In this document: in pieces, positions 4,801 through 63,941 of the stretch
Position numbering within the stretch: the stretch's first letter is position 1
Layout of the letters: every line of letters begins with the position of its first letter
Virus record (IMG/VR): IMGVR_UViG_3300017435_000029
Direction: 5' to 3' (one strand)
Length of the DNA: 64,000 bases
Source of the DNA: a virus
Notes under the pieces: model-generated
The model's input: the letters and a program-made list of their open reading frames with translations, nothing else
What the model was told of the DNA's origin: nothing
Database searches by the model: none
Position numbers and translations under genes: made by a program

Positions 4801-4816
4801 CCCGTTAAATTAACCC
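4801..4816 (+). promoter_or_regulatory. conserved element CCCGTTAAATTAACCC, copy 1 (candidate phage-RNAP promoter or operator)
   Basis: Exact 16-mer, AT-rich core in a GC-rich intergenic region; one of 5 identical copies. Confidence 0.6.
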
Positions 4817-4846
4817 AGGAACTGGGCAGGTTGACGGGGCGACGAG

Positions 4847-4862
4847 CCCGTTAAATTAACCC
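4847..4862 (+). promoter_or_regulatory. conserved element CCCGTTAAATTAACCC, copy 2, 52 nt upstream of the ATG at 4915
   Basis: Forms a tandem pair with copy 1, 46 bp apart, immediately upstream of a gene with a strong RBS. Confidence 0.6.
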
Positions 4863-8831: not shown

Positions 8832-9094
8832 CCGCGCTGGAGGGTGAGCCCACGGACGGCGTGGTCCTGTTCTGGGCAGGTTGGGCACCGCCCTCGACCG
8901 ACATGCGAGACATGATGCACGCGCTGCCGGACGAGTTCCGCCACGTGGACGTCGAGGCTAACCCCGAGGCCGCGCTCAAGAACGACGTCAGGGGGCTGCC
9001 GACCGTCGTGCTCTACAGGCGCGGCGTCGACATGTCGCGCAAGATCGGCTACATCAACGAGCAGGCCCTCCGCGCGTGGATCGCGGAGAACTGA
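8825..9094 (+). CDS. thioredoxin-fold protein lacking the CxxC active site (WAGWAPPS instead of WCGPC)
   Basis: VVLFWAGWAPPS...DVEANPEAALKNDVRGLPTVVLYRRG aligns to Trx VLVDFWAEWCGPC...[22 protein letters not shown]. Confidence 0.7.
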   Translation: MLTALEGEPTDGVVLFWAGWAPPSTDMRDMMHALPDEFRHVDVEANPEAALKNDVRGLPTVVLYRRGVDMSRKIGYINEQALRAWIAEN

Positions 9095-9198
9095 GCATCT
9101 TATATGATATCCACAGAGGAGGTCTCATGGGACCCTGACTACGTCCGACCAAGACCGGACAAGACTACACCACTCTGAACTCAAGTGAGGAATGAAAT

Positions 9199-11052: not shown

Positions 11053-11087
11053 TACCGCAACAACCACTCTGAAAGGTACTACCTGAC

Positions 11088-11681
11088 ATGGTAAAGGGAT
11101 ACACGAACTACCCGTTCCTCACGAAGCGGAACCTGGACAACCTCTGGAAGCTCTGCCGCCACCTCGAGCGCCTGCCGACGTGGTACGAACACTTCAACAT
11201 GGCGACGTACCACAACCAGAAGATCGCCGAGGAGCAGGTGAAGCCGCACAGCCAGTGGCCCTGCGGTACGGTCGCCTGCGCAGCCGGCCACTCGATCGAC
11301 GCGGGCGTGCCGTTCAACGCCCGCTTCATCGAGAAGCAGGAGGACCAGGAATGGGGCGAGCCGGCGTTCGAGTACCTGGCCGTCGACTGGGCCTCCTTCG
11401 CGGCGGACGCCTTCATGAATGACGAGACGCTCGAGAACAAGGAGGCGCAGCGCCTCTACTCGTGGCTGTTCAGCGGCGGGTGGCACTCGCTGGACAACAC
11501 CCACCGGGGCGCCGCGGCCCGAATCCGCTGGGTGCTGTACAACCTGCCGTTGCCGGGAGACCCCGAGGGCTACTACCCGGCGATGGACCACGGCGTCGTC
11601 GAGGCGTACCAGCCGTACGTGGTCAAGGGCGACAGCCTGCTGAACCACGCCAAGCGCTTCCTCGCCGGTCTCCGCCGGTGA
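11088..11681 (+). CDS. hypothetical protein (197 aa)
   Basis: Long ORF with a protein-like translation. Confidence 0.6.
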   Translation: MVKGYTNYPFLTKRNLDNLWKLCRHLERLPTWYEHFNMATYHNQKIAEEQVKPHSQWPCGTVACAAGHSIDAGVPFNARFIEKQEDQEWGEPAFEYLAVDWASFAADAFMNDETLENKEAQRLYSWLFSGGWHSLDNTHRGAAARIRWVLYNLPLPGDPEGYYPAMDHGVVEAYQPYVVKGDSLLNHAKRFLAGLRR

Positions 11682-14901: not shown

Positions 14902-15219
14902 ATGACCGACATCGAGGCGGCCATGCCGCCGGTCAAGCAGGAGCTGGACAGGCTGGGCCTCCGGCTGCTGCACATGAACAACACGTCGAACCCCTGGAAC
15001 GCGGGCACCCGCTCCTGGACCGCCGTGTACAAGGTCGAGGGGCCCTTCATCTACGTCTCCGTGACGTGGCTGAACCCCAAGGACAACTACTCGAGGCGTA
15101 TCGGAGCCCGCAGGGCGATCGACCTGTTCGAGAGCGGGGAGACCTTCCGGGTGCCCCGCAGCAAGGTCGTGCCGGCGGACAGGATCCTCACCGGCATGTT
15201 CAACGTACCCGTCAAGTGA
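14902..15219 (+). CDS. hypothetical protein (105 aa)
   Basis: RBS GGGAGAGAGAAG precedes ATG 14902. Confidence 0.5.
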   Translation: MTDIEAAMPPVKQELDRLGLRLLHMNNTSNPWNAGTRSWTAVYKVEGPFIYVSVTWLNPKDNYSRRIGARRAIDLFESGETFRVPRSKVVPADRILTGMFNVPVK

Positions 15220-19568: not shown

Positions 19569-19883
19569 ATGTTCTATCTTTTTAAGAAGCCGAAGGGCAA
19601 GCTGTCGGAGGTGGACTGCAGCGCCGAGGCGTTCCTCGCTTGGGCGAAGGGACGCGACCCGGACGAGGGGTACCAGTTCACCGACTGCACCGACTGTGCC
19701 TTCGCCCGGTACCTGCGCTCTCAGGGCGTCGACGCGAGCGTGTCCGTCGGCACCTGGCGGGAGAGGAAGGGCAGTTTCTACTACCCGTACGACAGGCGCC
19801 TGGACTTCTCCGGCGCTCTGCAGGCGAAAACCATGGGCGAGGCGGTCAGCCTGCTCGAGAAGAACCTCAAGGGAGACAACTGA
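19569..19883 (+). CDS. hypothetical protein (104 aa)
   Basis: RBS CAAGGAGG upstream. Confidence 0.6.
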   Translation: MFYLFKKPKGKLSEVDCSAEAFLAWAKGRDPDEGYQFTDCTDCAFARYLRSQGVDASVSVGTWRERKGSFYYPYDRRLDFSGALQAKTMGEAVSLLEKNLKGDN

Positions 19884-24198: not shown

Positions 24199-24272
24199 GC
24201 CCCTCCGGGGACACAATCGGCGCGCCCCTCGGGGTACGTCGGTCGTGTCCTCGGAGGGGCAACCACCCTTAT
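24199..24272 (+). terminator. putative intrinsic terminator: stem CCCCTCCG...CGGAGGGG followed by a T7 run (TTATTTTTTTCC)
   Basis: Inverted repeat at 24201-24210 and 24251-24260, then seven T residues; it sits at the end of the left arm. Confidence 0.5.
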
Positions 24273-24296
24273 TTTTTTCCGACGGCCTTGGCGCGA

Positions 24297-24314
24297 CCCC
24301 GTTAAATTAACCCC
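24297..24314 (+). promoter_or_regulatory. conserved element CCCCGTTAAATTAACCCC, copy 3, upstream of the terminase module
   Basis: Exact core 16-mer. It is followed by a leader that is conserved with the one after copy 5. Confidence 0.6.
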
Positions 24315-24527
24315 TATGCCGCTCCCCCGCCGTACCCTCACGGGGTAGGGTATGAGGTATGTCCCCCTAAGAGAAGACCCTAAGGGGTGCCCTCTCCCAG
24401 GGAGGACAAGAGTGGGGAGGGGTGGGCCACCGCGCTTGGGGAAGCGAGGGGATGCCCGTTGACTTAACGATGCGCGGGCGGCGGGATGCCAGCTCGTGCC
24501 ACAACCACGCAATCGAGAGGACACGCA

Positions 24528-24986
24528 ATGGACGCGCGGAACGCCGTCATTGAGCAGCCCCGAGCGAGCGGCGGCGCGATCGACCACGTGAAGCGCTACC
24601 ACGCCGGGTCCGAGCGGTCGAAGGACAAGCTCAGGCAGCTCAGGTTCGACCCAATAGAGAGGCTCGTGGACGAGTACCACGACATCAACCGCCTGATCAA
24701 GGAGGAGGAGGACTACAGAGACGAGCGGAAGGTGCGGCTGCACCCGGAGAGCGGCAAGGCCGTGCTCTGGCGGCCGGACATGCTGCTCAAGCTCATGGAG
24801 GAGCGCTCGAAGATCTCCGACAGGCTGCTGCGCTACGGCTACGGCAGGGTGCCCGAGGTCAACGTCAACGTGGACCAGGCCCCTCCGCCGTTCATCGTGC
24901 AGACCACCCGCAAGGGCGAGGTCTACCACACCGGCGTGGCGGACATCGACATGGACGAGGTGGAGGACCTGGGGGCCGGTCTCTGA
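24528..24986 (+). CDS. putative terminase small subunit (assigned by position)
   Basis: Lies immediately upstream of the large terminase, to which it is translationally coupled (TGATG). Confidence 0.45.
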   Translation: MDARNAVIEQPRASGGAIDHVKRYHAGSERSKDKLRQLRFDPIERLVDEYHDINRLIKEEEDYRDERKVRLHPESGKAVLWRPDMLLKLMEERSKISDRLLRYGYGRVPEVNVNVDQAPPPFIVQTTRKGEVYHTGVADIDMDEVEDLGAGL

Positions 24987-26344
24987 TGAGCGGCGTCCAC
25001 CTCCACGAGGGCCAGACCGAGGCCTACGAGGACCTGTTCGTGGACCAGCTGCACCGCTTCGTGGTGGTCAACTGCGCCCGCGGCTGGGGCAAGAGCTACT
25101 TCATGGCCGCCTGCGCCGTGACCGCAGCGTACGAGCTCATGGCGCTCCCCGCGACCGTGCCCAACAAGCGCGTCGCCGTGATCGCCCCGACGTACGACCA
25201 GGTGACGGACATCTACTGGCCCGTGCTGGCCTACGACATGGGCCTCGAGGCGCTGGCCGTGAAGTCCTCCCAGGACCAGGCCCGCTTCCTGCTGCCCAAC
25301 AACGTCGAGGTCCGCCTGCTGTCCTACGAGGCGGTCGAGCGGATGCGCGGCAAGGGCTACTACTTCGTGGCCTGGGACGAGGTCACCAGCTGCGTGCGCG
25401 GGCAGGACCCGAAGAAGGCCTGGGAGAAGATCATCAGGCCGTGCATCTCCACCCGCTGGTCCCCGAAGAACGCTGCCCGGCTGGGCGCGAGGTCGGCGGG
25501 CAGGGCGGTGATCGCCTCGACCCCCAACGGCTTCGACTACTTCTACGACCTGTTCAACATGCAGGACGGCGACCCCGCGAACTGGAAGTCGTACCACTAC
25601 GACTACACCGGCTCGCCCTTCCTGGACCCCGACGAGATCGAGTCCATCAGGGGCTCCATCGACACCCGCGCCTTCGCGGCGGAGTACCTGGCCCAGTTCA
25701 AGGACTCGGGCAACAGCGTGTTCTACTGCTTCGACCGCAAGGTCCACGTGCGCAGGGACCTGGAGCCTTTCAGGCCGCCGACCCACAGGACCGTCCAGGA
25801 CGGCGAGGACGTGCACGCCTGCATCGACTTCAACGTCGGCATCCAGGCCACGAGCATCTTCGCCAAGAGGGGCGACCAGATGCACTTCCTGGACGAGCTC
25901 CACGGGCACCCGGACACCGAGCAGCTGGCCGTGGCCCTCAGGGGCCGCTACCCAGGGCACAAGATCTACGCCTACCCCGACCCCAGCGGGCGGGCGAGGA
26001 AGACCTCCAGCCCGGTGGGCACGACCGACTTCGCCATCCTCGAGAGCAACGGGATCAGGTGCCTGGCCCACGCCAAGGCTCCCCCGCTGGTGGACTCCGT
26101 GAACGCCGTCAACGGTCTGCTGATGAACTGCAGGGACGAGTCCCGCATGTTCTTCCACCCGGACTGCAAGCGGACGATCGAGAGCATGGAGAGGTCCCGC
26201 TGGGTCGACAACAACCCGAACACCGCGACCATAGACAAGAGCGAGGGCGTGGAGCACCACTCGGACGGCGTCAGGTACGCCTCCGACTACCTGTTCCCCG
26301 TCAGGAGCGCCAAGAGGGCCTCCGCGCGCGGGTTCAACTTCTAG
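24986..26344 (+). CDS. terminase large subunit
   Basis: Deviant Walker A VVVNCARGWGKS, a Walker-B-like YYFVAWDE, and a C-terminal nuclease region containing DPSG. Confidence 0.85.
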   Translation: MSGVHLHEGQTEAYEDLFVDQLHRFVVVNCARGWGKSYFMAACAVTAAYELMALPATVPNKRVAVIAPTYDQVTDIYWPVLAYDMGLEALAVKSSQDQARFLLPNNVEVRLLSYEAVERMRGKGYYFVAWDEVTSCVRGQDPKKAWEKIIRPCISTRWSPKNAARLGARSAGRAVIASTPNGFDYFYDLFNMQDGDPANWKSYHYDYTGSPFLDPDEIESIRGSIDTRAFAAEYLAQFKDSGNSVFYCFDRKVHVRRDLEPFRPPTHRTVQDGEDVHACIDFNVGIQATSIFAKRGDQMHFLDELHGHPDTEQLAVALRGRYPGHKIYAYPDPSGRARKTSSPVGTTDFAILESNGIRCLAHAKAPPLVDSVNAVNGLLMNCRDESRMFFHPDCKRTIESMERSRWVDNNPNTATIDKSEGVEHHSDGVRYASDYLFPVRSAKRASARGFNF

Positions 26345-32296: not shown

Positions 32297-35200
32297 ATGG
32301 CCGAGGCCGTCAACGCAAACACACAGATGTACGATCGCGTGATCGATCGCGCCGCCATGATCCGCATGTACGAGGATCGTGTGCAGGGTAAGGTCACCCT
32401 GACGCTGGACGGTCACGAGAAGCGCCTGGACGACCTTGTCCGGGCAGCGCGCACCGACGTCAAGGGGCTGGACCGGCTGAGGGAGGCCGTGGACCAGGAG
32501 CTGCAGCGCACCTACCAGGAGGCGCACGCCGTCACCAAGAGGTCGCTAGTGGATCTGGCCGTGGACCAGCTGTCCTTCGCCTACCAGAACGTCGAGGTCG
32601 CCATGGGGCCGATCTGGCGCACCGCCCGCCCGACGCGGAGGGTCGCCGAGGAGATCGCCCTGGAGCGGCCGCTGTACGAAGACCGGACGCTGTCGCAGGG
32701 GTGGGCCGGCGTCTCGCTCTCCGAGAGGAAGCGGCTGGACGCCCTCATCCGCAGGGGCGTGGCCCAGGGTTGGACCGTGGACGAGATCGCCCTAGAGGTC
32801 CGCCGAGGCAACGTACACAACATCACGAGGATGCAGGCCAGGACGCTCGTCACGACGGCGGTCACCAGCGTGCACAACCAGGCAGATCATGAAGTCTACA
32901 AAGCGAACGCGAAGGCCCTGCAGGGGTGGCAGTACGTGGCTGTTCTGGACAGCCGTACTACTTCTCTATGCGCCCATCGCGACGGACATATTTACCCGAT
33001 CGGCGACGTGGAGCACCTACCTCCAGCTCACTGGAACTGTCGCAGCACTTCTGTTCCTGTGTTCAAGAGCTGGGAGGACATCGCCAACCTCGAGGGCGCG
33101 GCGGAGGTCCGCAAGAGGAACCTGCGCAACCTGACCCCGGAGGAGCGCGCCTTCTACGACGGCCTGACGCCGGCTCGAGAGGGCTACGAGGCGTGGCTCA
33201 AGAGGCAGCCCGTGCCCGTACAGCTCAGGCACCTGGGCGAGTACAAGAAGGTGGAGATGCTGAACGCCGGGGAGCTGTCCCTGGACAAGTTCACCAAGCC
33301 CGACGGCGCGACGCTCGGCATCCGAGAGCTGCGAAAGCTCACCGACCAGGACGCCGTGGTGCCGGGCGACACGAGGCGCTTCGCCAACGCGAAGGCGCGA
33401 CTGGACGCGATGCGCCTGGGCGCCTCCACGCCCGAGGACCTGTACAAGATGCAGGGCACCCTCGTCGACTACTACCTCCTGCAGGCGGGCGACCTGAACG
33501 GCAACCTCGCCGTCACCAGCTACCGCGGCACCCTGCTGCACAACAAGCGCAACACCCGTAACCGCGTGCTCTCGTCGCCCCCGACCGAGGAGCAGCTGCG
33601 CTACAACCCGCTGACCCAGCGCTACGACGACGTGCGCATCTACCAGCCCAACGCCGACGTCTACGACGGGGCGCTCAGGCGCGTGAGGGACAGCGAGGAC
33701 CTGTTGCAGGGCGACAAGGACTTCGTGCTGTCCACGCTGGACAAGCTGTCCATGAAGATGGGCATGAACGAGCGGGCCGCGGTGGCGGACAACCTCCGCG
33801 TGACCATCGGCCGCTTCCGCAAGAACGGCGAGGTCTGGGGCAACTTCAAGGCCGTCTCTAACAGCCAGATGAAGTTCGACGTGATGAACGTGTCGGACGC
33901 CATCGAGACCCAGCTGCGCCGCGACGGCGACGTGCTGAGGAAGCTGTCCAGGGACGTGTACGTGGACCCGGTACTCGGGGAGACCCAGCTGAGCGAGCTC
34001 GGCGGCGACCTCGTGAAGAACATCAAGGAGCGCAACAGGTGGGACGACACGGTGGCCCCGGCCATCGCCCGAGAGCTCCGCGACTACTTCGACCTCGCCA
34101 TCCCGAAGAAGATCCGCTCCCGCCTGTCCGAGAGGCAGGTGCAGGGCTTCTACCAGCGCTTCGCCGAGAGGCTGGGCGCGGCGGACAGCCCCGACAGGGA
34201 CGCCCTGGCAGTGGCGCTGGGCCGCGACCTGTACAACAGCGCGAACTACAACGGCAACCGCCGGGACTGGTACAACCTGGGGCTCAAGCTCCTGGAGCAG
34301 AAGGCGGGCCACCTCTTCCAGATCGACACCTTCGGCGTGCAGAAGCGCCGGATGCGGTCGAGGCTGAGCGGCGCCTACTTCGGGCCGTACTACGACACCG
34401 TCAGCTACTACATCAAGGTCGAGGACCCGCGCATCGTCCGCTACGCCCGCCTCAACAGGCAGGTGGAGATCGGGCTGCGCGTGCCCGTCACGTCCGAGGG
34501 CCAGAGGCTGACGCTCCGGGAGGGCTACAAGACGTACTTCGTGAGGGACGGGCTGGGCTGGTACGACACCCGCCTTCCGATCGTCTCCTCGTCGAGCTTC
34601 AGCAACTTCCCCACCGAGTTCGTGGACAAGGACTTCGTGTCCGCCATGAACTGGGCGTCGGAGACTAAGTACAAGATCGACCCGGAGTTCCACGAGTTCA
34701 TCCGCAAGCTGCTGTACTTCAAGGACGACCGCGGCAACGCGAAGAAGTACGACGAGCTCAACCACTACCGGAAGTACATGCTGGGGCGCGGCGACGCGTA
34801 CGAGCACTTCAAGACGATGCAGTGGCTCACCGAGGGCGACCGCACGTTCTCCAACCACACCTTCATCGACATGCGCGGGCGCGTCTACTCGCGGGGCTTC
34901 GTGACCCCGCAGAGCGGCGAGAGCTTCCGCCCGTTCTTCAACACCGAGCGCAAGAAGCCCCTCGGGGAGGCCGGGCACGACGCCCTGGTCGACCAGATCG
35001 GCTCCTTCCTCGGGGGCCTGACCGACTACTTCGAGGGCAACTTCGACTCGCTCACCTTCGTGGGGCGCAGGCGGATCGCCGAGAAGTGGCGGCCCGAGCT
35101 GAGGAGGCTGGGTCAGGCCATGTTGTCGGGCAAGCCCGCGGACATGCGCTACGTGCTGGAGAGCCCGGTCGTGGCCCAGGTGGACGGCGAGGAGCTCGGC

Positions 35201-36955
35201 AAGTTCTTCCGCTTCGCAATGGAGGTGGCCCGCATCGACGGTCACCTGCAGGACGGCGGGACGCTGGGCAACTTCTACACGGCGCTGGCCATGGAGCAGG
35301 ACGCCTCGTCCTCGGGGGCGCAGATCATCGCGCTCACGACCAGGAACAAGCAGCTGGCCGGCCTTTCGAACGTGGTGCCTACCAACCAGAAGCGCCGCCT
35401 CTACGACGAGATCGCGGCGGCCACCTACAACGACCCGCGCTTCAAGGTGCTGAACGAGAGGCTCGGCCTCAAGCTCAAGGACCTGCAGAAGGCCGCGAAG
35501 GCCCAGAACATGGTCACGTTCTACGGCGCGGGCGAGAAGACCGGCATCCTCAACGTCGAGGGCAAGCTCGGCAAGGTGCTCAACAAGCGCGAGGGTACCT
35601 TGGTGGTGACCGCCTCGGACAGGCAGAAGGTCTTGAACGAGATCGACGCCCGCATCGCACGCGTGGAGCGGTACGACCCCGAGGGCGGCCAGATGCTCCG
35701 GGTGCTGCGCCAGGACGTGCGCGACATCTTCAACAAGGGGCAGGACCCCGGCGACGACATCATGGAGTCGCTGTACTTCCTGGACCCCGCCACGAAGGAG
35801 CTCGTGGAGAAGCTCACCCGCAGCTACGAGCAGGTGGTCACCCCGGACGACTTCAAGGGCATCGCCAAGATCATGTCCGAGCACCTGGCGGAGCAGGTCC
35901 CCATCCTCAAGGACTTCACCCGCTTCTTCGGCCGCCTCGCGAGGGCGTACCTGGAGACGGCCAAGCCCGCCAACGCCGACTTCGACTGGAAGAAGATCGC
36001 CACGCTGGCGACGAGGGGTTCCGAGAGGGGCAGGGCCAAGCTGCCTCCCCTCGTGGCCGAGACCCTGGGGCTCCCCGCGAACACCCCCGTGACGGAGCAG
36101 CTGCTGTCCCGCCTCTTCACCGACTGGAACCCCAACTCGGGGCTGGCCCAGCTGGTGTTCGGCGCTAAGAAGTCCGACACGAGGGCCGTGGGCAGACGCC
36201 TGTGGAAGCTGGACCTCGGCAGCGCCCCCGACATAGCGTCCAAGTACCTGGGCACCGACGTGCTCAAGGACGCGACGAAGGCGAGCGAGGTCAGCCTGCT
36301 GTACACCGACCAGAACGACCTGCCGAAGAGCTGGTCGAACGTGCCGTGGGTCAACTTCGACGGCAAGACGATCGAGCAGAACTTCACCCAGAGCTTCGAG
36401 GAGAGACTGGTCTACAAGGACAAGGAGGGCAACTGGATCACCAACATCCTGATGATCCCCCAGAAGACCGAGGCCAGCTACTGGGACCAGGTGCTGAACA
36501 AGGCGGGCTCCATCAACGACATCGCGGACGCCGGCAAGGCCAACACCGCGTTCGCCGTGAACGGGAACCACTCGAACGACGCCGTGATCGTCAAGCGCTT
36601 CCACCTGTGGGGCCGCGACAACAACGTGCCGACCAGCACGGTGCACGACGCGTTCTTCACCCACATCGCGGACCTGCTGCCCGGCAGGACGGCCCTCCGC
36701 GGCATCTACGCCAAGACCCTGGACAAGAACGTGGTCAAGATGACGCTCGACGAAATGAGGGCGCGCGGGCTGTCCAAGGAGTTGTACGACGCCTTCCTTG
36801 ACGAGGCCATCGACAAGGGGCTGATACCCGTCGCGGGTCGGTCTGTCGTCGGCGGGAAGGTGCTGGCCGAGGAGGACATCCTCACCCAGGACGATGTGCT
36901 CGAGGAGGTCCCCTACGACTTCGAGCGTAACTACGGCTGGTACGGGGTCGGGTAG
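32297..36955 (+). CDS. fusion of a Mu-F/SPP1-gp7-like minor head domain (N-terminus) to a T7-like single-subunit DNA-dependent RNA polymerase (C-terminal, about 1000 aa)
   Basis: MuF signature VLDSRTTSLCAHRDGHIYPIGDVEHLPPAHWNCRST. RNAP motif A LAMEQDASSSGAQIIALTTRNKQLAGLSNVVP (T7: [30 protein letters not shown]), motif B KAQNMVTFYGAG (T7: KRSVMTLAYGS), and motif C TVHDAFFT (T7: IHDSFGT). The C-terminal ...VPYDFE is analogous to the T7 FAFA foot. Confidence 0.85.
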   Translation: MAEAVNANTQMYDRVIDRAAMIRMYEDRVQGKVTLTLDGHEKRLDDLVRAARTDVKGLDRLREAVDQELQRTYQEAHAVTKRSLVDLAVDQLSFAYQNVEVAMGPIWRTARPTRRVAEEIALERPLYEDRTLSQGWAGVSLSERKRLDALIRRGVAQGWTVDEIALEVRRGNVHNITRMQARTLVTTAVTSVHNQADHEVYKANAKALQGWQYVAVLDSRTTSLCAHRDGHIYPIGDVEHLPPAHWNCRSTSVPVFKSWEDIANLEGAAEVRKRNLRNLTPEERAFYDGLTPAREGYEAWLKRQPVPVQLRHLGEYKKVEMLNAGELSLDKFTKPDGATLGIRELRKLTDQDAVVPGDTRRFANAKARLDAMRLGASTPEDLYKMQGTLVDYYLLQAGDLNGNLAVTSYRGTLLHNKRNTRNRVLSSPPTEEQLRYNPLTQRYDDVRIYQPNADVYDGALRRVRDSEDLLQGDKDFVLSTLDKLSMKMGMNERAAVADNLRVTIGRFRKNGEVWGNFKAVSNSQMKFDVMNVSDAIETQLRRDGDVLRKLSRDVYVDPVLGETQLSELGGDLVKNIKERNRWDDTVAPAIARELRDYFDLAIPKKIRSRLSERQVQGFYQRFAERLGAADSPDRDALAVALGRDLYNSANYNGNRRDWYNLGLKLLEQKAGHLFQIDTFGVQKRRMRSRLSGAYFGPYYDTVSYYIKVEDPRIVRYARLNRQVEIGLRVPVTSEGQRLTLREGYKTYFVRDGLGWYDTRLPIVSSSSFSNFPTEFVDKDFVSAMNWASETKYKIDPEFHEFIRKLLYFKDDRGNAKKYDELNHYRKYMLGRGDAYEHFKTMQWLTEGDRTFSNHTFIDMRGRVYSRGFVTPQSGESFRPFFNTERKKPLGEAGHDALVDQIGSFLGGLTDYFEGNFDSLTFVGRRRIAEKWRPELRRLGQAMLSGKPADMRYVLESPVVAQVDGEELGKFFRFAMEVARIDGHLQDGGTLGNFYTALAMEQDASSSGAQIIALTTRNKQLAGLSNVVPTNQKRRLYDEIAAATYNDPRFKVLNERLGLKLKDLQKAAKAQNMVTFYGAGEKTGILNVEGKLGKVLNKREGTLVVTASDRQKVLNEIDARIARVERYDPEGGQMLRVLRQDVRDIFNKGQDPGDDIMESLYFLDPATKELVEKLTRSYEQVVTPDDFKGIAKIMSEHLAEQVPILKDFTRFFGRLARAYLETAKPANADFDWKKIATLATRGSERGRAKLPPLVAETLGLPANTPVTEQLLSRLFTDWNPNSGLAQLVFGAKKSDTRAVGRRLWKLDLGSAPDIASKYLGTDVLKDATKASEVSLLYTDQNDLPKSWSNVPWVNFDGKTIEQNFTQSFEERLVYKDKEGNWITNILMIPQKTEASYWDQVLNKAGSINDIADAGKANTAFAVNGNHSNDAVIVKRFHLWGRDNNVPTSTVHDAFFTHIADLLPGRTALRGIYAKTLDKNVVKMTLDEMRARGLSKELYDAFLDEAIDKGLIPVAGRSVVGGKVLAEEDILTQDDVLEEVPYDFERNYGWYGVG

Positions 36956-36962
36956 GGCCCAC

Positions 36963-36979
36963 CCCGTTAAATTAACCCG
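36963..36979 (+). promoter_or_regulatory. conserved element CCCCGTTAAATTAACCC, copy 4, upstream of the scaffold and capsid operon
   Basis: Exact core; a small hairpin CCCGCaaGCGGG follows it. Confidence 0.6.
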
Positions 36980-37088
36980 CAAGCGGGCGCGACAGGCTGT
37001 GCCTCACCCGCGCTCCCTCGCGGACAACATTCCAGGCGACGGGCTGTGCCCTTAGCCGCATGCGAGCTGTGCTCGAAGGAAGACACGA

Positions 37089-40881: not shown

Positions 40882-40956
40882 GGGGAGGTCGTCCAGTAGG
40901 TAGGACTCCGGTCTCCAAAACCGGCAACTCTGGTTCGAGCCCAGACCGCCCCGCCA
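40882..40956 (+). tRNA. tRNA-Trp (anticodon CCA), 75 nt, CCA end encoded
   Basis: Hand-folded cloverleaf: acceptor GGGGAGG/CCGCCCC (one A.G mismatch), D arm GTCC-AGTAGGTA-GGAC, anticodon arm CCGGT-CTCCAAA-ACCGG, variable loop CAAC, T arm TCTGG-TTCGAGC-CCAGA, discriminator G, then CCA. Confidence 0.75.
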
Positions 40957-42236: not shown

Positions 42237-45200
42237 ATGTCGGGCGTTATTATCGACGTAGAAACGAACTCTGAGAAGGCCAAGAGCGACCTGCGTTCAC
42301 TGAACCGGTCGCTGGCAGACATGGTACTGTCCGGCAACAAGGCCGGTCGCTCGCTGTCCACCGTGGACAACGGGCAGTTCAAGCAGCTCGACAAGAGCGT
42401 GCAGCGGTCCACCGAGAGCATGAAGAGCTTCGGTCGCTCCGGCTCCTCCTCGCTGAGGGCCGTCGCCAGCGACACCGCCGCGCTCCGGGCCAACATCGAC
42501 ATCCTCAAGGGCTCCGTGCTCGCGGTCGCGGGCGTCTTCGCGGCCACGCAGGGCGCTAGGCTCTTCACCCGCGCGGGCGACGACCTGCTCGAGATGCAGA
42601 ACCGCCTCAAGCTGGTGACCGAGGGCACCCGCGAGCTGGCCACGCGCCAGCGGCAGCTGTTCTCGACCGCGCGCGACACCCGGACCTCGTTCGCGGCCAA
42701 CGTCCAGATCTTCACGACCTTCTCGAAGGCGCTGGAGAAGGCGAACGTGTCGGGCGACCGGGTCGTCAAGATCAACAAGACCATCCAGCAGGCGGGCACC
42801 CTCTCGGGCGCCTCCGTGGAGGGCCTCAACGCCGCGCTCATCCAGCTCGGCCAGGGCATCGGCTCCGGCGTCCTCCGCGGCGAGGAGTTCAACTCCGTCA
42901 TGGAGCAGATGATGTACCTCGGCAACGGGCTCGCGAAGAGCCTCGGGGTGAGCATCTCCCAGCTGCGCAAGATGGCCAACGACGGTGAGCTGACCACCGA
43001 GAAGCTGGTCGGGGCGCTGGAGAAGATGGCGTCCACCACGGAGCGCGACTTCCAGAAGACCGCCGTGTCGACGTCGAAGGGCATCGCCTCGCTCCGCCAG
43101 TCGCTGGCCTACTTCTTCGGAGACCTGAACCAGACCGTCGGCGTCAGCCAGACGATGGGCTCGGCCTTCCAGAAGATGAGCGAGCGGGTGAGCTTCGGGG
43201 CGGACGGCATGGTGATCCGCCTGACGACGGTCCGCCGAGCTTTCAAGAACTACTTCGACCAGCTGCGCACCGTCGCCGGCTCGGGGTTCGACCTCAAGAA
43301 GGCGTTCTACCTCAGCGACGACGACCGCGTGAACGAGACCCAGCGCGCCCTCAAGGAGCGCAGCGCCTCGATGGTCAAGCGCATCCAGGAGCTCATGCGG
43401 GGCCAGCGCGACGCCGACTCGCAGGCGGGCAACCTCGTCAGCAAGCTCTTCGGACGAATCAAGCGTCCGTCGAAGGAGGACGGGGGCTTCTTCGACATGG
43501 GCGACACCCGCCGTACCGTCCGGGCCATCGTCGACACCTCCGCCCAGATCGCCAAGGCGGTCGAGACCACGGGCTGGATGATCAAGCGCATCGTCCCCAC
43601 GGTCCGCACCCCGATGATCCGCTTCCGCGAGGAGATCCTCAGCAGCTTCGCCGTCACCAACAAGGAGATGGAGACCTCCGTCTACAAGAAGATGCTGCCC
43701 CTCATCCGCAAGGTCGAGGTGGCGCGCGACGCCTTGACGGTGGGTATCAACGACGACGCGGCGCCCCGCGCCTTCGTGGAGCTGTTCAAGTCGGCTGACA
43801 TCGAGCAGTTCGCGGAGCGCCTGTCGCGCCTGAACGACCTGATGGACAACCACTTCATCCGCTGGAACAGCATGGGCTACTTCCTCGGGGAGAAGCGCCG
43901 CGCCCTGGTCTACAGCTGGCTGTTCCCGACGCAGGACCTCCTGGTCAAGCTCGGTCTGATGCAGAACCGGCTGTTCATGATCCGCGACACCAAGCTGGAT
44001 CGCACGGTCGCGTACTTCAAGCTCATCGGCGACATGATCGCCCGCGCGTACAACGACCTCGTAGCGCCTGACCTGAACCTCTTCGCCTACAAGGTGAAGA
44101 TCGGCATCCTCGTGGTCGCCAAGACCGCGCTGGACATGCTCAAGGATACCTTCAACTTCGCGAACGGCAAGGCCCTCGGGGCCGGTCTCGTGAAGGGCGT
44201 GGGGGCGGCGCTCGGTGCCGTCGTCTCGGTGGCTAAGCGGCTGGTCAGCTTCGACTTCGGCTCAGACGCCGAGAGCAAGAAGCTCGCCGCCCGCCTCCGC
44301 GACTCACTCATGGGCGCGATGGCGAGCATCCCCGGCTTCTTCGGGGGCCTGGTGACCGGCATCGGCCGTCAGCTCGCCGACGCGTTCGAGAGCATCGACT
44401 TCTCGGCGCTGCTGGACGGTCTGCGGGGCACCCTGACCGCGGCCGTGGGCTGGGTCAAGAAGATGTTCGATGACATCCTCGGGTACACCGACAAGCCGCT
44501 GGCCTCGGTGGAGCGGCGCGTTCGCGCGTTCGGGGACCGCGTCAAGGGTGTCTTCTACGACGCGTGGGACGCGGTCGTGGGCCACAGCTACTGGCCCGAC
44601 CTCGTGGACGACGTCAACGACTACACTAAGCACCTGTTCAAGTCGAACAAGCTGGTGGACCAGTTCAAGGAGATCATTCTCCGCAGCTTCCGCAGCCTGT
44701 ACGAGTCCGTCTCGAAGATGGGCGGCAAGGCGGCGGACACTCTGAGTCAGGTCAGCCTCACCATCCGCAAGGTGGACTGGGGCCAGAGCGCCAAGAACAT
44801 CGCCGGCCAGCTTGGCACCGTGCTGTACGCCGCCTTCACGATCCTCCGCTCGAGCTCCGGCCCGCTGCGACTGATCTCGGCGGCCTACCTCCTGTCTATC
44901 ATGGACACCGCGACGGGCGGCCTGCTCCGCAACCTCGCGCCGACCATCGGCGACGTGGGCGGTGCCATGGGCGCCCAGCTGGCGGTCATGATGGGCAAGG
45001 GCCTGTTCGAGGGCTTCGTGCTCATCGGCCACGCGCTGCCTAAGTTCCTGGAGTCGATGTTCGTCAACCTGGGGCAGGCCACCTTCGGGTTCGACCTGTT
45101 CGGCAACATCTTCCGCGCGCTGGACAACTTCGTCCCGGTGTTCAGCAACAACATGATCGGGGCCATCGCCGCCATCACCGTGGCGTGGCTGAAGTTCACC

Positions 45201-48200
45201 GGGCAGCTCAAGGTCGACAAGCTCAAGGGCTTGATGGAGATCTTCACCGGGACCAAGAAGAAGGACGGCTCCGTCAAGGAGCACGGCGTCGGCGCGGCCT
45301 TCTTCGAGGGCTACGCGGGTCCGCTGGTCGGCAACGCCGCCAAGTTCCTGCCGTCCGGCCAGATCGCCAAGAAGCTCATCGACCAGCCCGCGTTCGCGCT
45401 GGCGGCGGCGGGCATCCTCAGCGCGGGCCTGACCGACGCCTTCAAGATGACCGACGCCTTCTCGGCGGCCGTCCCGTTCATGGCCATCGCGGTCATGGGC
45501 AAGGGCGGCGGCGCGCGGCTCCTCAAGGACATCGCGTCTGGCCTGTTCAAGGTCGTCAGGGGCGCGTCGGCCATCGTGGCGAGGGAGGTGGCGACCACCG
45601 TCCTGCCCCGCGAGACCGGTGCCGCGTTTCTGCGCTTCATGGACAACTTCGACCTGTCAAAGTACAGGCCGAGGGTCGCCCCAGGCGCCCAGGCCGGCAT
45701 GTTCTCCGACGTCAGCCGCAACTTCAAGCAGATGCTGGTTAACCTCGAGATGAACCGGAAGCGGTACGCCGAGGGTGCCATCGACCTCAGCGAGACGCTG
45801 TTCAAGAGCTCGCCCGTCGGGCCCAACGGACCCGTCCAGCCCGTCGACACGAGCTTCAAGCGCAGCTTCGACGACCTGCTGAACCAGATGGGCTACACCG
45901 AGGGCGCGGTGGCGCGTACTCGGGACCGCATCCGCACCGGGATGGACAACTTCTACCTCGGGCTGCAGGCGGCGGCGACCAACGCCAACGTCGGCCTCCG
46001 TGCCGCGTTCTCGCGGCTGTCCGAGATGATGCTGTCGATACTCCGCAACAAGGCCCTGCTGGTCGCCCTCGCGGCGGCCATCGCTGTGGGCATGGCCGGC
46101 ACCGCCAACGCGGCCACCGGCACCGCCGACGCCTTCTCCCAGCTGGGCGACCGCCTGGCTCCCGTGGCCATCGCGGCTGCGGCCCTCTACGCCACGTTCA
46201 AGGGCATCAAGCTCCTGGCCGGGGCCAGCCGCATCGACATGAAGGTCAAGAGGGACTACTACTCGGAGAACGTTGGCCCCGAGGTCGACCGCTACCGAGA
46301 CGTCCTGCGCGGCAAGGCTAGGGACCGCATCGACGAGTACGACTCCATGTCGCGCTCGGAGCGCAAGGCTAACGGCTACACCACGCGGTCGGCGCTCAGC
46401 GACTCGCTGGACGAGGACATCGCCCGCAAGGCGGCGGCCCGCGAGAAGGAGCTCAAGGGCTACTACAAGAAGGACGCCGACGCGGCGGGTGGCTCCGCCA
46501 TGAAGGCGTACCTGCTGGCCCCGTTTCAGTCCCTCAAGGACGCCCTGACCCAGAAGCCCTCGGTGGACACCGGGGCGCTCAAGGAGAACGCGTCCTACCT
46601 CAAGGGGTTCGCCAGCGCCCTCCGCGCGGCCACCATCGCGACGCTGTTCAACACCAAGGCTCAGGCGGCCCAGGCCGCGCAGGGCACCCGCAGGGCCACC
46701 CAGGGCGCGTTCAGGGACCTCGTCCCGGCCAACCGTCGCCTCGCCGACAACAGCTTCAAGCCCGCCGGGCTGCTGACCTACCGTCTGGACGACGCCGAGA
46801 AGAAGGGGGCCTCCGCGGCCGCCTCCATGCTCAGCGGAGCCGGGCTGGCCGGCGGCCTCAAGAAGATGGGCGGCGCTCTCGCCAAGGGTGCGGGCGGCAT
46901 CGTAGGGTTCGTCCCCAAGCTGCTCGGCTTCCTCGGCCCGTGGGGCAAGCTCGCGGCCGTGGCCCTCACGCTGGGCGGTGTCCTCTACGGGGCGATCGGC
47001 CCTATGGAGGGCTTCATGGACAACCTGAAGCTCGCAGCCGCTAACCTAGCCGCGCTGTTCGGCATCGAGATCAAGACGAAGGCCAAGGAGCTGAACTCGC
47101 TCGTCACCGACTTCGGCAAGTCCGAGGTGGACGGCGACAAGTTCGACATCACCGAGCAGCTGCGCAACATCGACGGCAACAAGCTGTCCGACGCGCAGAT
47201 CGAGGGCCTCCGCAACGCGCTGGCCGCGTCCAACGACACCTTCAAGATGCTGAACGACGCCTCCGTGGCGCAGGGCGGCAAGCTGACGGCGGCGCAGGAG
47301 GCGGAGAAGCAGCGCACCCGCTCCGAGGTGGAGGGGCTCCTGGTCCGCTACCCGCAGAGGGAGACGGCCTCTTCCAAGGACTTCGGCCAGCAGATGGCCA
47401 TCATGCAGCGTCGCCGGGTGCAGGGGGACAACTCGTTCTCCGGCAACTTCAGCAGGCTGCTGGGCGGCGACACCTCCAACGTGGTCGCCAGCGGCAACGG
47501 CGCCTTCTCGCTGTTCTACGACGTACGCGACAACCTGTCCGACTTCTCCACCGGCCTGCAGGGCGCGGTGGCGGCCCTCGGCGCTTGGGTCACGGGAGTG
47601 GCCACCTTCGACGTCGCCAAGTGGCTGGTCCAGAAGGGTCGGGAGAATTCCGAGACGTTCACGGCGGTCGACGACTTCCTGAACGGCATCGGCCCCGCGA
47701 TCCGCGAGCGCATCCGGGACAAGGACAACGCTCCCGCCCAGATGTACAACGAGTTCGAGAAGGGCTTCATGGGTGACACCACGAAGTACTTCAAGGACCT
47801 GCAGCGGGCCCAGCCGGACGTCGCCAACAAGGTGATCTCGGCCCGTGACCAGTACGACAAGGCGGCTCGTCAGGCCGAGTCCACCCGCAAGGTGGTGCAG
47901 GCGGGCGGCTACGACAGGTCCATGGGCGACCGCGACCCCGAGGACGCGCAGAGGCGCTACCAGAGGGAGCTGGCGTTCCTGGCCCGGATCGAGCAGTCCT
48001 ACCGCCGCATCGGCATCGCGGCCGGCAAGATCGGCAAGTTCGAGAACCAGAAGGAGGCCCTCCGGGTCGGCCTGAAGAACTTCGCGAACCGCACCAAGGA
48101 CCTGGGCGTCGACTTCGGTAAGGAGGGCGAGAAGTTCTTCGGGACCGACCGCAACATGGCCTCCTTCGACGCCTACGCGCAGCAGCGCGACCGCGGACAG

Positions 48201-51200
48201 AAGGCGCTCTCTCGGGTGACCGACAACGCGGGCAGGCTCCGCGCCTCCAACATGGTCTACTCCGCCGAGCAGGGCGCTGCCGGGCTCAAGGAGCAGATGG
48301 ACGCTCGTCGTCTGTTCTCCGGTGCCGTCAAGCAGGGCAGCGAGGCCAACGGCGTGTCCAGCGCCACGCTGGCCGCACTGGCGGTCTCCGGCTCTGCGGC
48401 GGGCAAGGCGCTCAAGCAGGCCAGCGAGAGCTACCTAGAGCTCAAGACCCGCCTAGACACCGCGCCCTCGGACGCTACCCCCGCGCAGCTCCGCAAGCTG
48501 CAGGAGGACGCCGACAGGGCCGAGGCCAAGATGCGGTCGCTCGCGACCAGCTTCACCGGCTTCGAGGGGCTGAACCAGGCCCTCAGTGGCCAGGGTCTGC
48601 AGGGCCTCGACCTCAACCAGTACGTTAAGCTCCCCGACCAGAAGATCCTGGGCCTGAACAAGCTGCTCATGGAGGACATCCCCAGGGCGTCCGACGCGGC
48701 GGCCAGGGCTTTGGCGAAGGTTGGCAAGGACGGCAGCGGCCTGGACGAGTACAAGGCCGCCCTCCAGGGCGTGCTGCGCCTCCAGCGTCAGGCCGAGACC
48801 GTACGGGCTACCGGCATCAGGGACGCAGTCGCGGCCGTGAGCATCGGTGGACCCGCTGGGACCGCCGTCGCAGCTGACGTGGCCGGCGTGCAGCTCAACT
48901 CGAGGCAGCTCCGTAACAAGGGTACGCAGGGCGCGGTGGGCAAGCTCACCACCGCCAACGCCTCCGTGGCAGGCTTCCGGGAGCTCATGGCTACCCGGCC
49001 GCTGAGCGCGGACGAGGCTACCAAGTACGGCAACGCCGTGAGAGACGCGGCGGACGCCCAGGAGGCGCTCGACAAGCTCGGCGAGAAGCCCGAGAAGGTC
49101 AAGAAGGACAAGTACGGCTTCAAGGAGCTCCTCGCCGACGTGAACGAGGCGGGCGTCGCCATAGACGCCCTCGGGTTCTCGCGGCTGGAGGCCACCTCCC
49201 GCAAGTCGCTGTCCAGCATCGCCTCCCAGATCCACGGGATCGAGAAGCAGCTGGAGAAGGCGACCCCGACGCAGGATGTGTCGGGCCTGCTGGTCCGCAA
49301 GGCCAAGCTGCTGGCCGACATGCGCCAGAAGCTGGTCGACGCCTTCGACAAGACGGGCAAGGCCATCGGCGAGTCGCTGTCCCGCTCGGGCCTCAGCGAC
49401 AAGGCGCAGCTCGCGCAGCTCAGCGCGGGCCAGGTGAAGCAGATCGTCGAGTACGACAAGCTGATCACCCTGCGCCAGGCCGACCTGGACGACGCCACGG
49501 GGCCGGAGGAGTACGCGCAGGCTCTCCGCAAGGTCCTCAACCTCGAGCAGGAGCGCGCCGCCTACCTCGACCGAGCGACCTCGTCGCCCGACAAGTGGGC
49601 GGAGCGGATCAACGCGATCTTCTCCAGCAGCCTGGACACCACCTCCGCCGACCTCATCGGCTCGGGGCTGGCCGAGTACCTCTCCTCCGCGGCCGACGCC
49701 GTAAAGGCCAAGCTCGAGGAGATGCGCTCTAAGGGGCTGGTCTCGTTCGAGTGGATGCGCGACATCAAGCGCCAGGGCGAGTACATCTCGCTGTTCAGCG
49801 ACGTCGCGACCTCGATGGAGGACTCGATGGTGCGGGGCTCCCGTGCCGCCTTCAAGAAGATCAAGGACCTCGTCCCCGACTACGGCGTCAGCGAGCGCAA
49901 GTTCCGCCGGTTCAGCCCGGACCAGCGGCGCGAGGCGCTCTCCAACGCCGTGAACCTGGACGCGCTCGACAGGGCGCAGTCCCTGCCGAACCTGACGAAG
50001 CCCCTCGCGGACATCCTGAACTCCTTCGACGGCTCTAACCAGGCCGACGTGATGGAGCGCTTCCGCGAGGAGTGGGTTAAGGAGTTCAAGACCAAGTTCG
50101 AGGCGACGCCGCTGGAGTCCTCGATGGACCGGCTGACGACCGCCGTGGACGGCCTGAACACCACCCTCACCGGCAAGAGCGTCATGCCCGCGACCCTGTC
50201 GGCCACCCCGGCCGGCGTCGCTGCCACCCCCGACGACTTCGGCAAGCTGGTCGACATCACCCTGAACACCGAGAGCGGCGGTCGTCGCTACGGCAAGGGC
50301 GGGAAGCTCCTGCGGTCCTCCAAGGGCGCGCAGGGCGAGATGCAGGTCATGCCGGGCACCGCGAGGGACCCCGGCTTCGGGGTGAGGGCTGCTCGGGACG
50401 GCTCGGCGGACGAGCTGGCTCGGGTGGGCAAGGACTACCTGTCCGCCCTCCTCAAGATCTACGGCTCCGTTGACAAGATGTGGGCTGCCTACAACGCTGG
50501 CCCCGGCAACCTGAACAAGGCGATGCGCAGGGGCGGCGAGGACTGGCTCAAGCGGCTCCCCAAGGAGACGCAGGACTACGTGGCCAAGAACATGGCGGCC
50601 TACAAGCCGTCGGTCGCGAGGTCTCCGGAGGCTGAGGGTCAGGACATCGTCGTCACGGCGAACCCTCTCGTGGACTACGGCAGGGGTGAGGTGAACGCCG
50701 ACACGGCCGACAAGATCGACCGTGCTCGCAAGCGCTTCACCGGGGCGAACGGCGGCGGGCTGAAGGACAAGCTGGCTACGGCCGGCATGGACCTGAAGAC
50801 CCTCGACCTCTTCGACCCGAAGCAGCTGGCGAAGCTGGGCGCGTACCAGGAGCGGATCGACGACCTCAACGAGGCCATCGCGGCCGCGGACGCTACCGGG
50901 CAGGACACCTCCGTCCTCGCGCGAGAGCTCCAGAACGTGCAGGGCAACATGGACCGGTTCACCGACCGGGTCGTGCACATGGGCGACTCTCTCCGGCAGG
51001 CCGGGGAGCAGCTGGCCCAGTCCCTGGACCGCAACCTCAACGACGCGCTGTTCAACGCCTTCACCGGTAAGGGCGGCTTCTTCAAGTCGATCTTCAACGG
51101 TCTGTCCCAGGACATCCTCCGTCAGGCCACGGGCGCCATCACCGCCCCGATCACGGGCGAGAACGGCGTCGTGACGCAGGGCATCCGTAGCATCTTCGGA

Positions 51201-52633: not shown

Positions 52634-53221
52634 ATGTTGCTGTTCAGCCCGAGGGTTCGACAGCTCATCGCCGACGGGCGGGCGAGGGCGTTCTTCTGCC
52701 TTCACCTGCTCAACGCCGATTTGAGCGTCTACCGGGCCTCGACGACCCACTACAACACCGTGAAGCTCGGCAACGACATCACGTACGCCGCGGACGACTT
52801 CATCGTCTCCGTGGACCCACCCAAGATCAGCTCCAACGTCGACCGGGAGCAGTACCGCGTGACGCTGGCCGACCCCGAGTTCCAGGGGGCCGCGGACGCG
52901 GAGAACGGCCTCGTCGGCAAGAGGATGGAGGTTCGCCTCTGCTTCCTGGACCCCGACACCAACCTGCCCCTGACCGACATCGAGGACACGTTCATCGTGT
53001 ACAAGGGGCGGGTCGACGGCATGACGTCCAACGTCAGCACGGAGGAGGTCGGCGAGTCGCTGTTCGACATGACCGGGGCGAGCCCCATGGTCTCGTTGGA
53101 CATGAGCAAGGGCACCTACCTGTCCCGCGACGTCATGCGCGCGAGGGACCCGGAGGACTCGAGCTGCGATAAGATCTATAACGGCTCGGGCGCGCTCGTG
53201 CTAAAGTGGGGGAGGTCCTAA
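52634..53221 (+). CDS. tail protein (195 aa)
   Basis: Assigned by position, between the tape measure and the fibre. Confidence 0.5.
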   Translation: MLLFSPRVRQLIADGRARAFFCLHLLNADLSVYRASTTHYNTVKLGNDITYAADDFIVSVDPPKISSNVDREQYRVTLADPEFQGAADAENGLVGKRMEVRLCFLDPDTNLPLTDIEDTFIVYKGRVDGMTSNVSTEEVGESLFDMTGASPMVSLDMSKGTYLSRDVMRARDPEDSSCDKIYNGSGALVLKWGRS

Positions 53222-63545: not shown

Positions 63546-63562
63546 CCCCGTTAAATTAACCC
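63546..63562 (+). promoter_or_regulatory. conserved element CCCCGTTAAATTAACCC, copy 5, upstream of the holin-like gene
   Basis: Exact core, plus a downstream leader that is conserved with the one after copy 3. Confidence 0.6.
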
Positions 63563-63650
63563 TTAGGCGCCCTCCCCTGCGGCTCCCTAGCGTGAGCTGG
63601 TATAGAGGGGTAGACCCTAAGAGAGACCCTCCCCTAAGGGATGAGATGAG

Positions 63651-63941
63651 ATGGAAGAGGACACGGGTGGTGTGGAGATCCCCACCCAGTCGCAGAGGCG
63701 GGCGGGCCGGTTCATGTACTGGCTCGGCGGCAGCTGGAGCGCGTTTGCGGCCAGCTACATCACCGCCATCACCTTCTTCGACGTTCCGAAGGAGAACGTA
63801 CGCTTCGCCGACACGGTGCTAGGCTTCCTGCTGGGCACGGTAGTGACGAGCGTCCTGAACTTCTACTTCGGGTCGAGCAAGTCGGCACACAACCAGGAGG
63901 AGATACTGATCGCCACCGCCAAGAATGGAGAGCTGAAGTGA
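63651..63941 (+). CDS. holin-like two-TM membrane protein
   Basis: Two hydrophobic helices and a charged C-terminus; lies after the tail genes, at the start of a probable lysis cassette. Confidence 0.45.
   Translation: MEEDTGGVEIPTQSQRRAGRFMYWLGGSWSAFAASYITAITFFDVPKENVRFADTVLGFLLGTVVTSVLNFYFGSSKSAHNQEEILIATAKNGELK

Follow-up and report, generated by a model that had tools for sequence, protein, structure and literature searches.

The viral DNA considered here, a stretch of 64,000 nucleotides (nt) from IMG/VR record IMGVR_UViG_3300017435_000029 (hereafter the window), has a G+C content of 66% and carries every gene on the + strand. It contains five exact copies of a 16-mer, CCCGTTAAATTAACCC, all on the + strand (starting at 4801, 4847, 24298, 36963 and 63547) and all intergenic, where the chance expectation for matches with up to three mismatches is 0.06. 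Our subject is the leader of about 90 nt that follows two of these copies, copy 3 (24298-24313), which heads the terminase operon, and copy 5 (63547-63562), which heads the lysis operon.

Copy 3 lies behind a region of nucleic-acid metabolism that includes ligases and a DNA-binding protein and that ends, according to a terminator scan, in an intrinsic-terminator-like hairpin with a T-run (24254-24278, + strand). It precedes a terS-like gene of 152 amino acids (aa) (24528-24986, + strand) and the gene of the large terminase, TerL (24986-26344, + strand; PHROG 2, 1e-31). Between leader and terS we found a sixth site, absent from the preliminary description, in the form of the variant CCGTTGACTTAACGAT (P2; 24456-24471, + strand), 57 nt before the terS start codon. 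Copy 5 precedes the first gene of the lysis cassette, which encodes a holin-like membrane protein of 96 aa (63651-63941, + strand) with two hydrophobic segments by sequence reading, and whose ATG at 63651 is the start called in public assemblies. The genome past the window end was taken from public assemblies holding the exact 96-aa protein; there, this gene is followed by a 78-aa gene, a 180-aa lysozyme/endolysin-like gene and about 20 small genes. The placement of one copy before a terminase block and the other before a lysis block, as first described, is thus borne out by TerL and by the holin-like and lysozyme/endolysin-like genes. Relatives of the 96-aa protein on viral contigs were set aside, since all 68 of 68 loci lacked the 16-mer and therefore came from other phages.

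Downstream of the 16-mer, the leaders of copies 3 and 5 are collinearly similar over about 90 nt, at about 65% identity and with several indels. Smith-Waterman alignment compared with dinucleotide shuffles gave p=0.012, and a repeat of the comparison gave z=3.5 and p=0.007; the similarity is therefore not confined to the 16-mer, and the conservation past it that had been noticed by eye is real. BLASTN of one leader against the whole window reached an E-value of only about 1, and the similarity gains significance only through its collinearity and the promoter anchor common to both leaders. Other pairs of copies were mostly without similarity: copies 1 and 2 are duplicated in tandem, and a single short patch is common to copies 4 and 5. 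The direct CCTAAG repeats reported for both leaders were found again, and in the longer form CCCTAAG occur four times in the 64 kb, two per leader and none elsewhere. The leaders are also the top 100-nt windows of the whole sequence for CCCT/AGGG density (8-9 versus a mean of 1.03) and, for TA steps, belong to the top three 90-nt windows; no periodicity of these steps is obvious.

Four boxes, all on the + strand, make up the shared sequence. Box 1, a G+C block with a C-run and presumably the initially transcribed sequence, is GCCGCTCCCCC behind copy 3 (24318-24328) and GGCGCCCTCCCC behind copy 5 (63566-63577). It is followed by Box 2, a GGTAG/GGTAT cluster (GGGGTAGGGTATGAGGTATG, 24342-24361; GGTATAGAGGGGTAGA, 63599-63614), by Box 3 of the type CCCTAAGAGA(A)GA (CCCTAAGAGAAGA, 24365-24377; CCCTAAGAGAGA, 63615-63626) and by Box 4 of the type CCCTAAGGG(G/A)TG (CCCTAAGGGGTG, 24378-24389; CCCTAAGGGATG, 63632-63643). 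Behind copy 5, Box 4 (UAAGGG) stops 10 nt short of the lysis gene's ATG (63651) and, judging by its sequence and spacing, is probably the Shine-Dalgarno sequence of that gene. Its paralogue behind copy 3 holds a Shine-Dalgarno-like UAAGGGG and has no usable start codon behind it. The tail of the copy 3 module (24390-24420, + strand) matches the first eight lysis-gene codons weakly and in the same frame in a global alignment (AGG GAG GAC AAG AGT GGG GAG GGG versus GAA GAG GAC ACG GGT GGT GTG GAG), and similarity that reaches into the first lysis codons is as expected for a duplicated cassette.

Two other roles considered for this sequence were rejected. Box 1 and the next 15 nt do not in general read as a decayed second promoter copy, as the mean best match to the motif was 8.9/16 compared with 8.0 in shuffles (7/16 in the window copies, with L081 reaching 13/16). 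Nor was the C-run accepted as a mask of the Shine-Dalgarno sequence, for which 4-5 bp could be drawn by eye in copy 5, whilst the minimum free energy (MFE) structure pairs the C-run elsewhere.

A promoter-like motif and its late subclass in relatives

Exact copies of the 16-mer occur in more than 116 IMG/VR contigs among the matches listed, most of them of 33-49% G+C and many belonging to genomes of 70-81 kb. The phage family of the window is widespread yet uncultured; its nearest named phages are EBPR siphovirus 1, a relative (54% identity in the fusion protein described below), and, more distantly, the roseophages DSS3_VP1 and DSS3_PM1 of the Naomviridae. The motif is kept letter for letter across this range of G+C contents and always lies just upstream of genes, which argues for the promoter of a conserved phage polymerase. 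Two marks of a T7-like promoter system were found, namely a repeated coding-strand motif kept among relatives and a phage-encoded polymerase, and the 16-mer most likely serves a single-subunit RNA polymerase of the phage as its promoter. The start site would be the first G, which stands 1-7 nt past the motif in 90 of 118 instances among the matches listed, a weak signal against chance expectation.

The enzyme likely to read the motif is a free-standing T7-like RNA polymerase of 744 aa (L361:16494-18728; PF00940 at 5e-66), encoded about 6.5 kb beyond the window end, where its gene closes the run of about 20 small genes. It is followed by a 194-aa gene, by the first site of the 16-mer type, CCCGTTAGATTAACCC (L361:19408), and then by an SSB-like gene, its identity judged from the N-terminal sequence. 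The start region TGAAAGGGT is common to this site and copy 2 and may, from its sequence, mark a middle promoter subclass. Matches to the 16-mer in bacterial genomes were mostly single occurrences, and a group of mostly Comamonadaceae/Hydrogenophaga contigs shares an unrelated repeat; they gave no clue to the host. That repeat consists of the 16-mer followed by CCGGACTCCAAAGCCCAGTGCTACTGAAAACGGGGGGACGTCG (L125, L147, L151, L162, L186, L187, L189, L192 and L207) and may, to judge from its sequence, be the end of a mobile element unconnected with the phage promoter.

To describe the sequence behind the promoter across the family, we collected 118 non-redundant promoter instances among the matches listed. 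Of these, 29 (class A) carry at +5 to +16 a G+C block whose end is a C-run, with the consensus GCCGCCCCCCC (G-C-C-G-C-C-C-C-C-C-C; aligned on the first G, n=29, mostly genomes of about 36% GC); copies 3 and 5 of the window both fall in this class. When each instance was assigned to its first recognisable downstream gene, class A and other promoters numbered 10 and 18 at terS, 8 and 35 at scaffold genes, 2 and 3 at holin-like genes, 1 and 15 at SSB-like genes, and 0 and 11 at the gene that lies behind copies 1 and 2 in the window (w4915). Class A is thus enriched at late compared with middle genes (Fisher p=0.012), with 20 of its 21 assignable instances at terS, scaffold or lysis genes. These comparative data, drawn from a large phage family, uphold the proposed tie between the leader and late operons.

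At terS and scaffold genes, 17 of 18 class A instances are the distal member of a tandem pair, in which P1 is followed by a leader of 65-140 nt and then by P2. The order terminator, P1, class A leader, P2, terS holds in the window, L221, L438 and L441, whilst the sequences of L442 and L443 are short and only P2 and terS are visible. All five of these relatives have a homologous P2 site, CCGTTNNNTTAAYGAT, 70-120 nt before terS, its position and GAT ending conserved. In AT-rich relatives, a class A leader also heads a putative lysis cassette, read from its protein sequences as holin-like followed by an M15-type peptidase. KTAG repeats, the motif of Box 2, were found in 11 of 29 class A leaders compared with 7 of 92 other leaders (p=0.0003), and k-mer enrichment across leaders, dominated by AT-rich words, was uninformative.

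Both the terminase and the lysis leader were recovered for four phages, and in each the two resemble one another: z=3.5 in the window (66% G+C), z=8.0 in L221/L367 (63%), z=19.3 in L438/L368 (45%) and z=5.8 in L223/L369 (40%). For the terminase leader against the scaffold leader of EBPR siphovirus 1, z was 9.4. The two late-operon leaders are therefore alike within the genome in five of five phages examined, spanning 40-66% GC. Orthologous leaders of different phages reach z of 2-4, an AT-rich box in some terminase leaders excepted. This box, AAATATA(T)AATATAWCTAT, is present in L221 (3075-3110), L223 and L441 (63%, 40% and 47% G+C) and absent from the window's terminase leader. By eye, a C-run is present in all class A leaders, GGTATAGAGACCCTAAGAGA is common to copy 5 and L367, and CCCTAAGAG and CTAAGGG are present in L367 and in L096 and L114 (the last two of 38% G+C); Box 3 is also found in L367, L096 and L114. 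Blocks common to the two window leaders thus turn up again in other phages, which speaks for constraint and against recent copying.

The leaders upstream of terS in relatives are 250-400 nt long, AT-rich and furnished with phage-specific direct repeats. For example, L227 has three to four copies of AAGGACGTCTTTAA, L323 about seven of TAACTAT and L339 three of ATGAACTAT; L334 likewise has a direct-repeat array in its terminase leader. From their sequences, these arrays and the AT-rich box could be pac- or origin-like features. Compared with such iteron- or pac-type arrays upstream of terS, the window has two CCCTAAG per leader.

Further polymerase, motifs and neighbouring features

A second polymerase domain lies within the window. 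The gene at 32297-36955 (+ strand) encodes a head/polymerase fusion of 1552 aa, with an SPP1 gp7/Mu F-like domain at residues 6-359 and a T7/N4-like RNA polymerase domain (PHROG 414, PF00940) at roughly residues 780-1490. With this domain composition, the fusion may be a polymerase that is packaged in the virion; an HNH endonuclease gene interrupts the homologous gene of EBPR siphovirus 1. The 718-aa open reading frame (ORF) at 19696 was dismissed as a second polymerase, having neither similarity to the DSS3_VP1 polymerase nor a Pfam domain.

The three remaining copies of the 16-mer are without the module. Copies 1 and 2 (4801-4862, + strand; exact matches, in tandem, 46 nt apart) head a region with a DNA ligase, a DNA-binding protein and an RNA ligase, and copy 4 (36963-36978, + strand; exact match) follows the fusion gene and precedes the scaffold and capsid genes. 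The leader of copy 4 contains three hairpins with a TGT loop, AGGC-TGT-GCCT (36993-37003), GGGC-TGT-GCCC (37041-37051) and GAGC-TGT-GCTC (37065-37075), the last just before the ribosome-binding site. TGT-loop hairpins with other stems are present in AT-rich relatives (GGAT-TGT-ATCC, GAGT-TGT-ACTC). Their shape, a stem of 4-5 bp and a 3-nt loop with a central G, recalls the hairpin promoters of the N4 virion polymerase.

A second family-wide motif has the form GCGGAAAA-N3-4-(G)TATCTTATATGAWATCC, also written GCGGAAAA...TATCTTATATGA. Its sites are at 9086-9115 in the window and at 11071-11113, 14958-15000 and 15146-15188 of L361, in the early region past the lysis cassette. With up to one mismatch, the 11-nt core is matched 99 times in AT-rich relatives, in part by chance, and several AT-rich contigs hold two or three full copies of the motif. 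Judged by sequence and distribution, it probably represents either an early class of promoter or the type used by the other phage polymerase. A third motif of the early region, ...CCCACCTAATTTTTTAAC, occurs three times in L361 (12765-12799, 15611-15645 and 15662-15696).

A tRNA-Trp(CCA) gene (40882-40956) separates head from tail genes, and the tail region contains two giant ORFs of 3266 aa (42237-52037) and 3129 aa (53206-62595), the latter with internal repeats of about 94-101 nt. Position 63505, 42 nt upstream of the copy 5 16-mer, is the first base of two independent assemblies, JGI 3300032593 and SRR10376307 (L365, L366). The coincidence could mark a physical end of the DNA or, with variable tail genes alongside, a repeat or recombination boundary.

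Proposed late-operon cassettes and rival readings

Sequence conservation, association with late operons and paralogy of the two leaders are established. We see about an even chance that these leaders are late-operon expression cassettes, each consisting of the promoter and the roughly 90 nt transcribed first. In this model a phage single-subunit RNA polymerase, likely the 744-aa T7-like enzyme, would bind the 16-mer and begin transcription 2-5 nt further on, at the first G. Transcripts of the late subclass would open with 12-16 nt of a fixed G+C block with a C-run end (GSSGYYCCCCC); this Box 1 block would set late promoters apart from middle ones and may act on promoter escape or early elongation, as in the distinction around the start site between class III and class II promoters of T7. 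The rest of the cassette would serve as a 5' untranslated region (UTR) comprising a small hairpin, the GGTAG/GGTAT cluster and two Shine-Dalgarno-like UAAG(A/G)G boxes, and the whole may influence initiation, transcript stability or translation. In the lysis operon the last box would be used as the ribosome-binding site of the first gene. The terminase copy would then be a duplicated cassette, with an orphan Shine-Dalgarno-like box and a relic of the lysis-gene start, set upstream of an older, weaker P2 (24456), so that tandem promoters would serve the terminase genes. The suggestion in the preliminary description of a shared 5' leader directly behind two late-operon promoters agrees with this; overall, its observation is confirmed and its interpretation supported in part.

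Several points weigh against the cassette model. The G+C/C-run block is absent from the L368 lysis leader and replaced by a G-run in two EBPR leaders, and is thus not strictly universal; Boxes 3 and 4 are found in just 3-6 of the 29 class A leaders; and copy 4, the scaffold/capsid promoter, is late yet lacks the module. Likeness within a genome may reflect partly degenerate boxes under one G+C bias, and gene conversion could have contributed to it. Moreover, T7-type polymerases are not known to prefer a C-rich initially transcribed sequence.

The leader had been described as structured, and a cis-acting structured RNA, such as a site processed by RNase III or RNase E, a 5' stem-loop with a protective role or a put- or nut-like element that modifies the polymerase or brings in an RNA-binding regulator of the phage, would fit an element that lies wholly inside the presumed 5' UTR and whose C-rich 5' segments are able to pair with later G-rich ones. 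Several T7 late promoters precede mutually similar RNase III sites, which lends this reading a precedent. Hairpins were indeed predicted in both window leaders, as claimed, but they are no more stable than those of shuffled sequence (RNAfold MFE z of -1.4 and +1.2) and the two MFE structures differ, so that the folds are not comparable, an outcome that the preliminary description had itself named as refuting its claim. Across eight leaders z ranged from -2.7 to +1.2, with only one below -2, and RNAalifold on nine related leaders gave -1.26 kcal/mol, with three pairs that change on both sides in equal numbers of sequences, apparently one close trio among few close relatives. Searches with the Rfam 15 covariance models returned only the tRNA-Trp at gathering score and no credible leader match at E-values up to 10. 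Among mid- and high-GC relatives a small hairpin does recur at 10-50 nt past the presumed start, its stems unrelated in sequence: UACCCU-CAC-GGGGUA in copy 3 (24333-24347, + strand; RNAfold), CUAGC-GUGA-GCUGG with a GNRA-type loop in copy 5 (63587-63600, + strand; sequence reading), GGCC-GUAA-GGCC in L221, and others at similar positions in L367, L438 and EBPR siphovirus 1 by sequence reading. The EBPR paralogues, AGGC-GUGA-GCCU and GUGC-GUGA-GCAC, differ by two compensatory pairs and share a GC-GUGA-GC core with the copy 5 hairpin. This recurrence is suggestive only, as such hairpins are common by chance in G+C-rich sequence. Pairing of the C-run with a downstream G-run was rejected as a general function, being possible in G+C-rich members but not in AT-rich relatives, which have the C-run without a G-run partner; and pairing of CCCTAAG with CTAAGGG leaves an A-A mismatch, which fits direct repeats better than a stem. 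A conserved or significantly stable structured RNA is not supported, and we consider this explanation unlikely.

If the repeats act in the DNA instead, the leaders would be double-stranded sites bound by a protein of the phage, for instance the small terminase or a late regulator, with the repeated CCCTAAG and GGTAG boxes as its targets, and the terminase leader might form part of a pac site or origin. The direct repeats within each leader, the richness in TA steps and the repeat arrays in the terS leaders of L227, L323 and L339 are in keeping with this, as is the fact that paralogues are closer than orthologues, as if co-evolving with a genome-specific binding protein; the primary origin of T7, too, consists of tandem phage promoters followed by AT-rich DNA. 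Yet the module also stands at the lysis operon, and in other phages at the scaffold operon, where a pac site or origin is unexpected, the boxes never vary in orientation or in their placement with respect to the promoter, the window's terminase leader has neither the AT-rich island nor the long repeat arrays of its relatives, and no candidate binding protein was identified, so that we hold binding sites to be rather unlikely. The similarity could also be a functionless relic of a duplicated promoter and its flank, kept alike by recombination between promoter copies. Promoter duplications are known in the family (copies 1 and 2 of the window; P1-P2 pairs in relatives), and both the similarity entering the lysis codons and the orphan Shine-Dalgarno-like box of the terminase copy would suit such an origin. 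The arrangement in five of five phages of 40-66% GC, the retention of the C-run block at about 36% GC, the identity, by eye, of the blocks conserved within genomes with those recurring between them, and about 65% identity with several indels, which speaks against a recent duplication, make a relic very unlikely. Finally, the discrete unit of 65-140 nt between two promoters in relatives might be a separate small RNA gene, as had also been proposed, with a transcript that begins at P1 and stops short of P2 or the ribosome-binding site. We judge this extremely unlikely, since sequence reading of both window leaders up to the next promoter or ribosome-binding site disclosed no hairpin with a U-run, terminator scans of the + strand placed terminator-like sites only upstream of copy 3, the lysis module continues directly into the ribosome-binding site and start codon, and Rfam gave no match.

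Comparison with known systems and significance

The cassette model has its closest parallels in phages T7, T3 and SP6, where class III promoters repeat one invariant coding-strand motif for a phage single-subunit polymerase and where conservation past the start site likewise distinguishes a late-gene subclass. Gene order is comparable as well, since in T7 the polymerase gene (gene 1) is shortly afterwards followed by the first promoters. The AATTAACCC within the 16-mer corresponds to the upstream nine bases of the T3 promoter, positions -17 to -9; a T3-like geometry was judged unlikely, as the start would then fall inside the G+C block. In T7, conservation ends at about +6 and is purine-rich (GGGAGA), whereas here, counting from the presumed start, the C-run block extends to +12 to +16 and is followed by about 70 further similar nt. 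The RNase III sites of T7 (R1.1, R6.5, R13 and others) are paralogous, mutually similar and situated in leaders directly behind phage promoters, but each forms a stable hairpin of about 20 bp that holds an internal loop, and the leaders described here have no comparable or significantly stable fold.

The putL and putR elements of HK022 and the nut sites of lambda offer a second parallel, as paralogous leader elements, two of about 70 nt just behind two promoters of one phage, in which, as in boxA plus boxB, a small GNRA-type hairpin follows a conserved linear box. They differ in acting on a multisubunit host polymerase and in having well-defined stem-loops; here no conserved stem-loop pair was seen and no downstream terminators needing antitermination were identified. 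Leader boxes that overlap or mimic Shine-Dalgarno sequences, some copies without a start codon, are known as the start-associated sequences (SAS) and extended start-associated sequences (ESAS) of cluster K mycobacteriophages and as stabilizing Shine-Dalgarno (STAB-SD) elements. SAS are 13-mers beside many start codons and independent of promoters, whereas the boxes here belong to a promoter-anchored module of about 90 nt, and STAB-SD elements are known from Gram-positive bacteria. N4 resembles this family in having two phage T7-like polymerase genes, here one fused to a head gene and one free-standing and early, alongside two distinct family-wide promoter-like motifs. In N4, however, the virion polymerase has 3,500 aa and recognises hairpin promoters, and late genes are transcribed by the host polymerase.

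A phage promoter, a late subclass and a shared leader are each known in kind, whilst the module and promoter code are, as far as we searched, undescribed: no account of the transcription signals of this family was found, papers containing the motif concern other, unrelated matters, and phage polymerases and their promoters go unmentioned in the Naomviridae paper. Beyond the cassette model, the leader might be a cis-acting signal that reprograms a single-subunit phage polymerase soon after initiation, through put-like antitermination or processivity, or through a pause of the class II type that couples late transcription to the timing of packaging and lysis. We give this only a slim chance; if true, the signal would define the late transcripts of a large uncultured family with two T7-like polymerases and two promoter codes.

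Overall, three outcomes are of immediate use, namely the promoter code of the 16-mer, the late subclass with its C-run block and leader of about 90 nt, and the second, early promoter-like motif. With these, temporal classes can be annotated in hundreds of metagenomic phage genomes, and short defined sequences are offered for in vitro tests with the compact 744-aa polymerase. Should the leader alter polymerase behaviour or the fate of the mRNA, it would represent a new form of late-gene control for single-subunit polymerases; otherwise, it provides a useful marker of late operons in this widespread family.

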